The position numbers and the translations under genes are program-made. A model generated the notes under the pieces. The model worked only from the letters and a program-made list of their open reading frames with translations, had not been told where the DNA came from and ran no database searches. A DNA stretch of 45,651 nucleotides from a virus (taxonomy: Duplodnaviria > Caudoviricetes): the IMG/VR virus record IMGVR_UViG_3300037478_000106, positions 1 to 45,651 of that record, one strand, 5' to 3'. Positions 4,362 through 45,651 of the stretch are shown here, piece after piece (position 1 is the stretch's first letter; every line of letters starts with the position of its first letter).

Positions 4362-4376
4362 TCCCAACCATGCCAC

Positions 4377-4405
4377 AATATACCATCAGACGAGCAACTC
4401 CGCAA
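4377..4405 (-). promoter_or_regulatory. Sigma70-type promoter
   Basis: TTGCGG-17 bp-TATATT with extended TG. Confidence 0.8.
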
Positions 4406-4455
4406 ATAAGTGTGGGAGTGGTATGGTAAGATCCTTAGACCTATCTTCCTCCCCC

Positions 4456-4475: not shown

Positions 4476-4516
4476 GTATAACCCCTTCCAGAGAATCCTT
4501 CTCCCGTAGATGTCAT

Positions 4517-4778
4517 CCCTGATCAGGCTTTCCCTGGTAGGTAGGCTGTGTGTTAGCCTACCTACCTTCCCCCCCTAACCTCCATGGGTGTGTTGTTCCA
4601 AAGGTGTTAGTTAGGGTATTTGAAGTGTCGTCCTGTTGTAGGAAAAAAAATAAGAGAGAGACTCACACTTCAGAGCTTCATACTCATAACCCACGCAACA
4701 CACCTCCAAAAGGTAGGGGGGGGAGGTAGTTAGGTCAACTCCCCACCTACCTCCCTACCCCAGAAAGATTGGATCGGG
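4517..4778. repeat. Long nested imperfect inverted repeat in non-coding DNA (candidate origin, packaging site or ncRNA)
   Basis: 4557..4595 complements 4696..4734; TGAAGTGT/ACACTTCA inner pair; perfect 12-bp hairpin at 4536..4566; central A-tract. Confidence 0.7.
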
Positions 4779-4788
4779 TATAGATCCG

Positions 4789-4827
4789 AAAAAAGACCGA
4801 AGCGCGGATGTTCTCTCGCTCCGATCT
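4789..4827 (-). terminator. Intrinsic terminator after gene 4865..5305
   Basis: AGATCGGAGCG...CGCTTCGGTCT stem running into a T6 tract on the minus strand. Confidence 0.75.
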
Positions 4828-4836
4828 CTATTCCCA

Positions 4837-4864
4837 AGTGTCACATTACGATACAGTGCGGTGG
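4837..4864. repeat. 28-bp inverted repeat, left arm (3' UTR of gene 4865..5305)
   Basis: 25/28 complementary to 5346..5373. Confidence 0.9.
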
Positions 4865-5305
4865 TTACTTCGTGAGGTTCTGAGCGATATTCAGTGCGAT
4901 GTCGCTTGGCGTGCCCATGTCCACGAGCTGACCAGCGTAGGCCTGCTGGTACTCGGTCCAGTCGTCTCCGGACATCTTCGTTCCGTCCGGCAGCGGGTAC
5001 ATGGTGGTGACCTTGCCAGCACGCCGGATGCCCTTGAGCATAGCGTAGTGGGCTTCCTGGATCTCCTCGACCTTCTTACCGACCATCGCGCGGTTCAGGC
5101 CCTGGGACTTGACCCGCAGGGACGTACCGTCCGACATGGCAAGCAGGCACTCCCCGCCGAAGTGATTCAGGAAAGCAGCGAGGTCCTCGATAACGGCAAT
5201 CTGCGCATTATCGGTAACGGTGGCCTTATCGGAGTTGTTCGGCCCGTTGCGCTTGGCAACGGACTCAGTCCGAAAGACGATTCCGTACTCGTTCCAGTTA
5301 CGCAT
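4865..5305 (-). CDS. Hypothetical protein, 146 aa; paralogue of 41565..41990
   Basis: GGAG RBS before the ATG at 5305; shares the MxDGTSxRVxxQ motif. Confidence 0.8.
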   Translation of the reverse strand: MRNWNEYGIVFRTESVAKRNGPNNSDKATVTDNAQIAVIEDLAAFLNHFGGECLLAMSDGTSLRVKSQGLNRAMVGKKVEEIQEAHYAMLKGIRRAGKVTTMYPLPDGTKMSGDDWTEYQQAYAGQLVDMGTPSDIALNIAQNLTK

Positions 5306-5345
5306 GATGTTTCTCCAGTGTAGGGGATTGTATGACGTAGCTCCG

Positions 5346-5373
5346 CCCCCGCACTGTATCGTAACGCGACACT
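5346..5373. repeat. 28-bp inverted repeat, right arm (5' UTR of gene 4865..5305)
   Basis: 25/28 complementary to 4837..4864. Confidence 0.9.
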
Positions 5374-5437
5374 CAGTTGTCAATCAACGTTGTGGCTATG
5401 GACTGTCCATATGCTGCTTCGTCCATACCACACAACC

Positions 5438-5466
5438 AATGTAACACCCTGCGGGTCCGATGTCAA
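5438..5466 (-). promoter_or_regulatory. Strong sigma70-type promoter for gene 4865..5305
   Basis: TTGACA-17 bp-TACATT with extended TG. Confidence 0.85.
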
Positions 5467-5624: not shown

Positions 5625-5653
5625 TTGCGTAGAAAGGGTTCTGGTGTTATATA
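5625..5653 (+). promoter_or_regulatory. Sigma70-type promoter heading the virion operon
   Basis: TTGCGT-17 bp-TATATA with extended TG; same family as the minus-strand promoters. Confidence 0.75.
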
Positions 5654-5712
5654 TCATGGAGAGGCGGGAGCTACGTCCATATGGATCGAGAGCTCAGGGA
5701 CTGAACACCCAT

Positions 5713-5732
5713 CTATTCCATTAATGGAAAAG
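5713..5732. promoter_or_regulatory. 20-bp palindromic motif, copy 3
   Basis: CTATTCCATTAATGGAAAAG; its last G is the first base of the GTG start at 5732. Confidence 0.75.
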
Positions 5733-6289
5733 TGCCGAGACCTAACCCAGCAAGTGCGAATAGACAGCGAGTCGTCGACCTCAGACCGCGGACGAAAGCA
5801 GCGCTCCGGCTCTACGCCAGCGGAGCGGTCAAGTCTATTGCTGAAGCAGCTCGGACAGTTGGAGCTGCCCCTGGAAGTGTCTACGTCGCCCACGGAACCA
5901 TCACAGGACAGGCCCTTGTGAATAGCGTAGATCAGGCGATCGAGGAGAAGACCATCGACATGGCAGAGCTGCTCAAGCGGCTCGGGAGAGAAGCTGTCCT
6001 CAAGACCGCCACGCTGATGCGAAGCGCCGGGAGTGAGAATATCCAACTTGCCGCAGCGCGTGACCTGGCGGATAGATCAACTGAGACCAGCAAGATCCAG
6101 AAGATCCAGGTAGAGCCTTTCACACTTGATCCGGATGCCGGGAAGGCCCTGGCCGCTGCGCTGGTAGAAGCCGCACAGGTCCAGACCAAGTTTGCTGATG
6201 CGTCGACGAGAGATCTCATCAACATCGAGTCGACGAGTTACACGGCGCTTCCGCCGATGGAAGTACAACCTGTCAAGGAGGAAGGATGA
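5732..6289 (+). CDS. Putative terminase small subunit (N-terminal HTH)
   Basis: HTH-like KAALRLYASGAVKSIAEAARTVG; helical; first gene upstream of terL. Confidence 0.6.
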   Translation: MPRPNPASANRQRVVDLRPRTKAALRLYASGAVKSIAEAARTVGAAPGSVYVAHGTITGQALVNSVDQAIEEKTIDMAELLKRLGREAVLKTATLMRSAGSENIQLAAARDLADRSTETSKIQKIQVEPFTLDPDAGKALAAALVEAAQVQTKFADASTRDLINIESTSYTALPPMEVQPVKEEG

Positions 6290-35371: not shown

Positions 35372-35586
35372 TAGACTTGATTCTCCGCACGCTTCGCCAT
35401 TGCCTTCTTAGCAAAGAACGCAGCTTCTTCCAGCTTAGTACGAACGATAGACATCTCACGACCGTCCGTACCGCAGATGTGTTCTAGGCCATCAAGAAGA
35501 ACACTGAAAGTATCTGCGATGTCAGTAGCTTTTTCCTTGCCTTGCGTGTTAAGCATGTGTACTGCAAACTCATCACGATGTTCCAT
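35371..35586 (-). CDS. Acb2/Tad1-like helical-hairpin protein (putative immune-signal sponge)
   Basis: F..H...REMSIVRTKLEEAAFFAKKAMA signature; 71 aa. Confidence 0.65.
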   Translation of the reverse strand: MEHRDEFAVHMLNTQGKEKATDIADTFSVLLDGLEHICGTDGREMSIVRTKLEEAAFFAKKAMAKRAENQV

Positions 35587-36824
35587 TACTCCTCCGGATT
35601 GGTATAGGACTTGATCTTCTGCAGTGCATGAGCACGGCGTTCAGAGTTCATCTCAACTCCGAAGAAGTCACGGCCAGTAGATGCAGCCGCCGCTGGGCAG
35701 GATCCTGAACCCACGAAGAAGTCTGCGACGATCTCGCCTGGGACAGTGAGTCGTCTGATAAGCTCGGCATAGAGCTCCACAGGTCGCTCAACCATAAGCT
35801 CAGACGCGCCCACCGGAGGGATGCGCAGCACATTCGGCTTACCTCGCTGGACTATCTGTGGAGTACCCTTGAAAGCGTGAATAGCAACATCGTAACCACG
35901 AGCGAAGTAACGATCAGGACGTAGAGTGAAAGTGCGACCCTCCGTCCTATCCCAGACGACCGGAATCTCATCAACCGTAAACCCAGCATCACGGAACGCC
36001 TCCTTGACTTCAGAGTACCATGAGATTCCAAAGAACCAGATGAGCCAGCCATCGGGCTTAAGGACACGGTAAAGATCTGGAGCCATTGTGAGAAGCCGAC
36101 GATAGTTCTCTGCATCATCCTTGTACGAGTTCATCGAAGCGGTGTCGTTCTCTCTGCGCTTATCATAGTCGATACCGAAAGGAGGATCGGTAATGATAGC
36201 ATGGAACGAGTTGTCTGGCACACGCTTGATGACTTCCACTGAGTCTCCGAGGATGATCTTCTTTTCTAGATCAGCGAAGTCCAGTGGAGTGTTCTTTACT
36301 GCATCCTTCCGAAGGATCTGCTTGGCCTTCGTATTAGCCATCGAGACAGCCTGAGTATGATTCTTTGCGTTCTTGGCAATCTCGGGAAAGAGCTCCATCA
36401 TCTTGACGAGCTTGTGCGCTTCAGAGACTTCCGCTGGCCGCACGTTAGCCAGGGCCACAGTTGCACTCTGTGTCCAGTTAGGATCTTGTGCGCGCTTGAG
36501 GTTATCAAGATCAGCAAGAGCCTTCGCGCGCTCCTGCCAGGTCATGTCTGTGCGCTGGATGTTGACTTCGAGTTCGATCTCTCGCGCAAGGAGAATAGAA
36601 ATCTCACCCTGACGAACAGCATCGATCTCGGTCCAGCCTGCTTCACGAGCCGCCGTGATTCTGTGCAAGCCATCAACCAGCTCACCATTAGCATCGAGGA
36701 TGATTGGCTGAAGCTGGCCAAACTTTTTCAGAGATTCTACGAGGCCCGAGAGGTCACTGGTTACTTCACGATATCGCTCTCGGCTGATCTGAATCTGGTC
36801 GAGAGGGACACGCTCGTAACTCAT
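35586..36824 (-). CDS. ParB-like domain fused to an N6-adenine/N4-cytosine DNA methyltransferase (beta class)
   Basis: GQLQPIIL...DGLHRITAA; HTH-like WTQSATVALANV; IITDPPFG then ADFFVGSGS. Confidence 0.9.
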   Translation of the reverse strand: MSYERVPLDQIQISRERYREVTSDLSGLVESLKKFGQLQPIILDANGELVDGLHRITAAREAGWTEIDAVRQGEISILLAREIELEVNIQRTDMTWQERAKALADLDNLKRAQDPNWTQSATVALANVRPAEVSEAHKLVKMMELFPEIAKNAKNHTQAVSMANTKAKQILRKDAVKNTPLDFADLEKKIILGDSVEVIKRVPDNSFHAIITDPPFGIDYDKRRENDTASMNSYKDDAENYRRLLTMAPDLYRVLKPDGWLIWFFGISWYSEVKEAFRDAGFTVDEIPVVWDRTEGRTFTLRPDRYFARGYDVAIHAFKGTPQIVQRGKPNVLRIPPVGASELMVERPVELYAELIRRLTVPGEIVADFFVGSGSCPAAAASTGRDFFGVEMNSERRAHALQKIKSYTNPEE

Positions 36825-41366: not shown

Positions 41367-41395
41367 AATATAACACGAGGCGCGGTACTACGCAA
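41367..41395 (-). promoter_or_regulatory. Sigma70-type promoter for the replication/recombination operon
   Basis: TTGCGT-17 bp-TATATT with extended TG. Confidence 0.85.
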
Positions 41396-41428: not shown

Positions 41429-41493
41429 TGGTGACGCCGAGACTTGAACTCGGATGGGTCCTAACCGGCCCTAGCGTTCCGTACCTCGTCACC
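41429..41493 (-). ncRNA. 65-nt tRNA-like element with degenerate D and anticodon arms
   Basis: Perfect 7-bp acceptor GGTGACG/CGTCACC+A; T-arm CCGAG TTCAAGT CTCGG; only 33 nt between them. Confidence 0.7.
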
Positions 41494-41564
41494 AGCTGGT
41501 TCTATCGAGAAACCAGCAAGCTCCCTAGAGAAGTACCCACGGTGCTCTAGGCCACCCCCCTGGA

Positions 41565-42049: not shown

Positions 42050-42078
42050 AATATAACATGAGGATCGCCTCTACGCAA
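42050..42078 (-). promoter_or_regulatory. Sigma70-type promoter for gene 41565..41990
   Basis: TTGCGT-17 bp-TATATT with extended TG. Confidence 0.85.
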
Positions 42079-45073: not shown

Positions 45074-45118
45074 AGTACCTCCAGAGGATGATGTGCCGAA
45101 CGCACTGGTGGATGATTC

Positions 45119-45147
45119 AATATAACACTAGACGACCCGCTACGCAA
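45119..45147 (-). promoter_or_regulatory. Sigma70-type promoter
   Basis: TTGCGT-17 bp-TATATT with extended TG. Confidence 0.85.
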
Positions 45148-45154
45148 TGGCGGG

Positions 45155-45520
45155 TCAGAAGTGCTCCTCCTCAGGCTGATTGAAGATCTCATGATAGTCA
45201 ACAGCCGGAAGGACTAGCCACCTGGTGCCCTCATAGAGGACTGCGCGACTCCCATCGGCCCAGATGTAGAGATCACCTTTTATGTAATCGTTATCTCGCG
45301 CGACAGTAAACGCTTCGATTACAGCCGTGAGCGGAGGACGATAAGGTTCTGGCTGTATTATAACTGGAGAGCTATCTGGGCCTTTCCAAGGAACTGCCTG
45401 TCCCGGTTTCCAAGGAACAAACTTCTTACAGTTGCACAACAGCGACATACAATCATCTGTCATGCCTACATGGACACCTGCACGACAGCCGCAGGTACAA
45501 AGATAATCTGGGTCAGGCAT
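45155..45520 (-). CDS. Hypothetical protein with an N-terminal Cys/His cluster, 121 aa
   Basis: MPDPDYLCTCGC...H...C....CNC; the ATG overlaps the end of gene 7..357 in the circle. Confidence 0.65.
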   Translation of the reverse strand: MPDPDYLCTCGCRAGVHVGMTDDCMSLLCNCKKFVPWKPGQAVPWKGPDSSPVIIQPEPYRPPLTAVIEAFTVARDNDYIKGDLYIWADGSRAVLYEGTRWLVLPAVDYHEIFNQPEEEHF

Positions 45521-45651
45521 CTTCGAGGAGTCTCCGCGCATTGAGAAGTGGTGTAGTGATGATGAGGCCAGTCTGAAAATGCCACCGGAAGTAATCAAGC
45601 CCTTGATCTGTCGGCAGGCCTGTTGCGAGCATAGCCATGAGACTCGCATAC
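45507..45651. repeat. Terminal direct repeat, right copy
   Basis: Matches 1..145. Confidence 0.97.

Follow-up and report, generated by a model that had tools for sequence, protein, structure and literature searches.

A conserved leader-trailer RNA helix and a boxA motif around a phage protein gene reproduce the layout of bacterial pre-ribosomal RNA

The IMG/VR virus record IMGVR_UViG_3300037478_000106 (Duplodnaviria; Caudoviricetes), analysed here over its 45,651 nucleotides (nt) and referred to below as the window, carries on its minus strand a gene (4865..5305) that is bracketed by two long complementary arms. The question raised by this locus is what such arms do around a single protein-coding open reading frame (ORF), the product of which, P0001 (146 amino acids), belongs to a conserved phage family without assigned function. 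An earlier note, made from the sequence alone, had described a 28-base-pair (bp) inverted repeat whose left arm begins at the first base after the stop codon, and had proposed that selection acts on an RNA stem looping out the whole ORF. The repeat search and the sequence itself confirmed this geometry. The 3' or trailer arm (4837..4864, minus strand) starts at the first base 3' of the TAA stop, while the 5' or leader arm (5346..5373, minus strand) was located by inverted-repeat search and folding; at DNA level both are 28 nt long, 89% complementary and 481 nt apart. In the minus-strand RNA 27 of the 28 arm positions pair, as the note had counted for the transcribed strand only, with a duplex energy of −48.6 kcal/mol against −40.1 kcal/mol for the other strand. 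The minus-strand fold that it had suggested as a check gave a z of −6.5 (0/20 shuffles equally good) and 25 outer pairs with an ensemble probability of at least 0.99. On the stop-codon side, three positions (the mismatch and the innermost two pairs) had probabilities of 0.14 or less and are mostly open, so that the firm helix is of 25 bp. Pairing between the 110 nt before the start codon and the 60 nt after the stop codon was summarized in a strand-symmetric clamp score, in which G·U and A·C are weighted equally. The gene scored 58 and the runner-up among 62 identically scored window genes 24, which was the highest value in the 61 others, a hand-picked set in which no clamp was found.

The remaining parts of the unit lie on the same strand. 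A sigma-70-type promoter-like site (TTGACA-17-TACATT with a TG extension, 10/12 consensus matches) is situated at 5438..5466, in agreement with the near-consensus promoter of the earlier note, and an rRNA-type boxA motif, GTTGATTGACAACTGAG, at 5372..5388, directly before the 5' arm. This boxA had been missed by the note, as had the layout shared with precursor ribosomal RNA (pre-rRNA) and its spread to many other phage genes. A Shine-Dalgarno-like GGAG (5313..5316) stands 7 nt 5' of the ATG, inside the looped-out part, the helix being roughly 30 nt away. The terminator that the note had placed at 4789..4827 stood only in part: a hairpin followed by a U run is present in the fold (4789..4828), and it is absent from the list of the terminator scan, which gave the neighbouring hairpin 4787-4771 instead. 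Rfam had no match at the 4865-5305 locus, the looped-out RNA being a conserved ORF and not rRNA.

Conservation of the helix was assessed in related phages reached through the paralogue of P0001. The orthologue was present in 10/10 records searched and the paralogue also in 9/10, and a metagenome scan gave eight loci (two new and usable, two duplicates, two without one flank and two false positives). L040 and L041 (false positives), L034 and L035 (duplicates of L026 and L025) and L038 and L039 (one flank absent) were excluded before the count of 13 orthologue loci. Their clamp scores ranged from 18 to 61 with a median of 44 (at least 35 in 11 loci, 29 in one and 18 in another), so that the helix between the 5' and 3' untranslated regions (UTRs) is kept in 12/13 (score of at least 29); this is the complementarity of flanking repeats in homologues that the note had wished to see checked. 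No clamp was found in any of 10 paralogues, the highest score being 22. The arm sequences are mostly unrelated across the orthologue loci, with the exception of the pairs L015/L025 and L026/L036, which share arms. Being too divergent for alignment, they give support in the form of pairing kept with changed sequence, not of per-column covariation. At the non-Watson-Crick positions of the 13 helices there were 18 G·U against 2 A·C pairs (p 4e-4), or 14 against 2 with the window left out. This excess of G·U over A·C indicates selection for pairing in the mRNA strand. The 5'UTR-3'UTR helix is therefore a conserved RNA feature, and the note was right about a selected stem.

The same data bear on whether the arms might be DNA sites, that is, the ends of an invertible segment or of a small mobile element, as a 28-bp inverted repeat round one gene with the promoter outside it could suggest. 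Against this stand the strand-specific G·U bias, the unrelated arms of the orthologues and the fixed place of the gene: its divergent neighbour is a homologue of the terS-like gene of the window in 12/12 loci with enough upstream DNA. The window gene was seen in one orientation, with no joints or reversed pieces in the contigs of four DNA runs, one of them possibly the source, although contigs drop rare variants. In addition, no recombinase was found among 36 window proteins scanned. We therefore regard DNA sites as highly improbable, in line with the note, which had held inversion to be less likely.

The position of the arms relative to the coding region is also constrained. The 3' arm starts 0-14 nt after the stop codon in the orthologue loci, and 28-78 nt separate the end of the 5' arm from the ATG in 12/13, which leaves the ribosome-binding site (RBS) uncovered by the helix. 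In the window the GGAG region is partly unpaired in the predicted ensemble, and the unpaired fraction predicted for the RBS was 0.34-0.66. An mRNA "clamped shut", as the note had put it, does not fit these distances. A translational switch, either a hok-like helix or a boxA-Nus loop like those of suhB and lambda N, would keep the gene off or delay it until processing or an antisense RNA flipped its state. Locus L037 would suit it, where the arm ends 9 nt before the ATG and touches the Shine-Dalgarno sequence, and boxA itself pairs through three or four G·U. The other 12 loci do not, the product is a 146-residue globular protein and not a short hydrophobic peptide, and no antisense promoter-like site facing the leader was found in a consensus scan, a scan that misses weak promoters. 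We consider such a switch improbable, and the hok-like version offered in the note finds little support where the arm does not directly cover the RBS, although the pairing may act on it indirectly. Taken as a whole, the interpretation of the note is supported for the selected stem and the unlikely inversion, and not for the closed message or the switch.

The motif before the 5' arm indicates which known transcripts the unit resembles. TTGACAAYTGA stands directly before this arm in many orthologues, and similar promoter sites were recognized by eye upstream of L015-L018, L022 and L025. GTDB genomes were scanned for the promoter plus TTTGACAACTGA, and 120 of about 340 matching stretches were taken; in 61 of these best 120 the 16S 5' end lies 55-163 nt downstream. 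The rest comprised 39 stretches with less than 400 nt of sequence and no 16S match and 20 others without 16S match, and many of the matches are from related Nitrospira. To avoid circularity, a boxA matrix was built from independent 16S leaders chosen by Rfam, namely 29 unselected leaders out of 30 listed for 61 genomes of one phylum (Gemmatimonadota, judging by L116), the locus of one unpublished genome being excluded. The window boxA scored 17.1 (training leaders 16.9-25.9, best elsewhere in the locus 3.4); its variant matches two leaders of the sampled phylum, L185 and L187, which is insufficient to identify the host. boxA reached the rRNA level in 8/13 orthologues (15.8-24.8, best background 12.9) and in 0/10 paralogues by the same matrix. 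The alternative that the motif is an additional −35 hexamer was rejected because none of the 13 orthologues has a −10 at 16-18 nt.

The spacing between boxA and the helix agrees as well. Counted from the start of the boxA core, the leader-trailer helix begins at 0-11 nt in 23/23 rRNA loci that have a trailer (clamp scores 36-63) and at 0-25 nt in seven phage loci. Given this match, the phage unit, consisting of promoter, boxA, leader arm, ORF, trailer arm and hairpin, is the layout of bacterial pre-rRNA.

The same layout was found well beyond the orthologues. A search for the promoter plus the boxA form described above gave 78 viral loci, 52 of them non-redundant and with an ORF, and 18/52 had a clamp (score of at least 35; the orthologue L022 is among the 18). 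Promoter-plus-Shine-Dalgarno controls (121 loci, 84 usable) had none (0/84, none above 21; p 3.5e-9 against 18/52), their guanine plus cytosine (GC) content not being matched. The clamped loci showed 30 G·U against 3 A·C pairs, and clamps followed boxA quality, with 17/32 among loci with a fuller boxA against 1/20 among those without. Terminase genes adjoin 6/14 clamped viral loci scanned (L209, L217, L223, L243, L272 and L277). The proteins of the other clamped viral loci had no convincing PHROG or Pfam match and no detectable kinship to P0001; a family likeness between P0001 and proteins of other cassettes was discarded (hhalign probabilities 4.3 and 1.0, not significant). Scans of viral DNA with single proteins or with A1 found nothing.

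Among cultured phages, the first two right-end genes of Pseudomonas phage O4 each combine a boxA with a clamp, with scores of 61 and 54 and a fold z of −9.9, the second boxA following directly after the trailer arm of the first gene. Genes 2.5 and 2.8 of Escherichia coli phage K1E form tandem boxA-clamp units in the same way (scores 50 and 44, the other seven early genes at 21 or below), with a fresh boxA right after the first trailer arm and a third boxA-like site before ocr. The boxA of both phages is of the gamma-proteobacterial form. One boxA-clamp unit with a score of 46 was seen in HHBS14_1 and HHBS51_1. No clamp was found in T7, LUZ19, VpV262, ICBM2 or the MW202554 stretch. T7 has a boxA at position 813; its eight early genes, all scoring 21 or below, have no UTR-UTR helix around them.

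In bacteria, NusB binds boxA, and a proposed looping of the nascent RNA would let the trailer pair with the leader; the resulting leader-trailer helices measure 25-40 bp, and a second boxA precedes 23S (PMC10250234, in part). RNase III makes double cuts 16-1080 nt apart with staggered ends (PMC6212723, in part), and a boxA-Nus loop represses the translation of suhB and lambda N (PMC5725501, in part). Judged from the sequences, the reading that we favour, with slightly better than even confidence, is that the phage unit recruits the host machinery of rRNA transcription and processing and would give rise to an RNase III-released, end-paired monocistronic mRNA. For the window helix itself, an RNase III substrate or a stabiliser is the leading reading. 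NusB/NusE on boxA would keep the leader arm tethered to RNA polymerase during looping-out of the ORF, and the trailer arm would pair with the leader arm on emerging. RNase III would then cut the helix and free the ORF from the Nus tether, leaving short paired ends that may slow exonucleases. The product would be a long-lived and well-translated message with a free RBS, from the probable first early gene, and a transient co-transcriptional repression would be part of this best model. Cutting of the helix would sever the tether, and the fresh boxA after each trailer arm in K1E and O4 is compatible with such a cut. A wider proposal, that phages of several unrelated groups pass off their first early genes as pre-rRNA, with a host-matched boxA that loads the rRNA Nus complex, a helix round the ORF and RNase III maturation as for 16S and 23S, is more tentative, and we would place it just short of an even chance.

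If the cut ends were joined, the mRNA would become a covalently closed circle, and the geometry does put both ends together round one ORF. RNase III ends are staggered (PMC6212723, in part), however, no RNA ligase was found among the 36 window proteins scanned, which are a subset of the genes, and informal inspection of the helices brought up no bulge-helix-bulge-like pattern. A circular mRNA is therefore very unlikely in our opinion.

Several observations weigh against the RNase III model. Clamps occur without boxA in 5/13 orthologues (L026, L029, L032, L033 and L036). The helix of L037 has only 12-13 bp, with the score of 18, and many helices have cores of about 18 bp, below the 25-40 bp of the enterobacterial rRNA helices, which makes two-strand cutting uncertain. 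Only 5/59 usable viral loci with the gamma-type boxA are clamped, with no bias in their pairs (9 G·U against 6 A·C). T7 and VpV262 have boxA and no clamp, so that boxA does not require the clamp. It must also be noted that the loci cannot be counted as independent, since arms are common to L015/L025 and to L026/L036 and several viral hits are related. This makes the p-values optimistic. The controls, moreover, were not GC-matched. Part of these data would suit a helix that is left uncut and closes the mRNA ends as a stabiliser, or sets the stop beside the start for ribosome re-use, boxA serving ordinary antitermination only. The clamps without boxA, the short cores, the commonness of boxA without clamp in T7-like leaders, and a 3' arm that invariably follows the stop within 0-14 nt, with the RBS free, would all be expected of it. 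It accounts less well for the boxA-arm adjacency, as tight as in rRNA, for the dependence of clamp frequency on boxA quality and for the renewed boxA that K1E and O4 have immediately behind the trailer arm; moreover, the near-perfect 25-bp helix of the window falls within the size range of rRNA helices cut by RNase III (PMC10250234, in part). An uncut helix appears to us rather unlikely, though it ranks first among the rival readings.

Comparison with known systems shows which elements are shared. The bacterial rrn unit (rrnTAC and an RNase III stem) has, like the window, a promoter, a boxA, a nearly adjacent helix arm, a looped-out RNA and a complementary trailer. The boxA sequence forms of rrn and phage units are the same, and the tandem units of K1E and O4 recall the second boxA before 23S. 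Unlike in rrn, the phage loop is a protein-coding ORF with its own RBS, the helices are often shorter, the 3' arm follows a stop codon within 0-14 nt, and boxA is lacking in 5/13 orthologues. The early transcript of T7 is cut by RNase III at local hairpins between genes into single-gene mRNAs. Both this region and the phage unit have an early promoter for the host polymerase, a boxA and monocistronic mRNAs that are likely made by RNase III; the phage helix, in contrast, spans the whole ORF, with arms 481 nt apart in the window, and T7 early genes have no UTR-UTR helix. K1E contains the clamp design and the T7-type design side by side. In hok/sok, the fbi and tac elements pair the 5' and 3' ends of one mRNA over a long range, as the arms do here. 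The window differs in that the arm does not cover the RBS, no antisense promoter-like site was seen in the consensus scan, the product is not a small membrane toxin, and boxA is present. The leader of lambda nutL-N and that of E. coli suhB resemble the window in having boxA in the 5'UTR of a protein gene and a Nus loop on the mRNA (PMC5725501, in part). For suhB, the part of that source used here describes no 3'UTR partner arm. As for lambda, no boxB or N-like protein was noticed in the window, no search having been aimed at either. In the literature searched, no phage ORF was found to be described as enclosed by a leader-trailer helix with a boxA; the older SP6, K1-5 and K1E genome papers, which were outside this search, may mention stems. 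Each part is already known, and its use round protein-coding genes appears to be new.

Regarding the protein, P0001 has five close relatives, and its family comprises 192 clusters at 50% identity (E≤0.001), with none in GTDB contigs and no cultured homologue. It had no PHROG match, no Pfam match above the cut-off among 136 family members, a best E of 0.046 against PDB sequences, no Foldseek match at E≤0.001 and no usable match in the ESM Atlas. No structural match was significant; the best had a VIA Z of 4.1 and covered the C-terminal part only, the N-terminal domain alone (residues 1-96) and a viral-structure library being outside this search. The AlphaFold2 model is a globular alpha/beta protein (predicted local distance difference test, pLDDT, 91; predicted template modelling score, pTM, 0.59). 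P0001 is predicted to form a homodimer: the prediction score was 0.50, against 0.00 for the best of three controls, at a mark reached by 20/30 solved homodimers and 1/23 monomers. The runs had at least 54% of contacts in common and a pLDDT of at least 78, and the predicted interface, at residues 57-65, lies over the conserved DGTS motif. A helix with the conserved residues S62, R64, Q68 and R72 is a candidate for contacts with nucleic acid. The paralogue P0008 (41565..41990, minus strand; hhalign probability 98.8) has neither boxA nor clamp and serves as internal control. After it, at about 41430-41500 on the minus strand, there is a sequence that resembles a tRNA, has a CCA end and was called by neither ARAGORN nor Rfam, and T-arm-like motifs are also present downstream of the paralogue in relatives.

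The window is a near-complete phage record that encodes the large terminase, portal, major head protein, primase and DNA polymerase. Among cultured phages, the closest terminases, with no more than 22-25% identity, belong to Zobellviridae such as PA11, O4, VpV262 and ICBM2. The divergent neighbour of the clamped gene (5732..6289, plus strand) is conserved beside the cassette and has no PHROG match; given its position before terL, its product is likely the small terminase subunit. Zobellviridae have a terminal repeat between packaging and early genes, and by analogy the clamped gene is probably the first early gene, divergent from the packaging genes. No RNA run was listed for its locus, a result that has no bearing on its expression. 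A short GAGCTACGTC motif is common to the leaders of the clamped gene (5330-5345) and the terS-like gene (5663-5680).

Some other traits of the genome were recorded. Beyond the terminator, 4480-4790 is non-coding and strongly structured (60-nt inverted repeat, z −4.5) and is possibly a replication origin or an RNA; the relatives L018 and L022 have repeat-rich non-coding DNA at the matching place. Ten copies of palindromes like TTCCATTAATGGAA, several inside genes, occur at 363, 4458, 5715, 7786, 14049, 19670, 27458, 31536, 37146 and 41409 (shuffled mean 0.07), and a ParB-like/methyltransferase gene is found at 35586-36824; as a guess, the palindromes are parS- or operator-like sites. Each of five relatives has 0-2 loose matches to this palindrome, which leaves its binding by P0001 unsupported. 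The promoter-like repeat TTGCGTAG...TTATAT, at 5625-5652, 41368-41395, 42051-42078, 45111-45153 and 4369-4411, differs from the TTGACA promoter in front of the clamped gene, and probably represents a second promoter class. A 145-nt terminal repeat (1-145 and 45507-45651, 98% identical) lies within coding sequence and is more likely an assembly overlap than a virion end. In VpV262, a consensus boxA (L401:544) stands 490 nt before ORF1 and is followed by unannotated DNA of weak structure (z −1.2). Finally, at L210:2550-2900(+), L237:2550-2890(+), L271/L200 and L253 a boxA and a long helix surround RNAs of 100-300 nt that have no clear ORF and no Rfam match and lie within phage tRNA arrays (L210 is homologous to L237); they are candidates for new non-coding RNAs processed like rRNA.

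The unit of boxA, leader-trailer helix and RNase III has been regarded as specific to rRNA, and here its layout occurs round phage protein genes in several groups. These boxA-clamp units suggest a general route by which phages obtain stable single-gene mRNAs within the first minutes after infection. If this is true, they would constitute an undescribed and widespread class of "rrn-mimic" mRNA cassettes, with members in K1E and O4, and the first example of protein-coding messages matured by the rRNA looping machinery. They would also make testable, without the confounding effect of ribosome assembly, the open question of whether boxA tethering promotes the formation of long-range helices, as in the looping model (PMC10250234, in part). 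The cassette may in turn provide a compact mRNA-stabilising design for bacteria, and in the phages themselves it singles out a set of unannotated early proteins that are likely made at high output.
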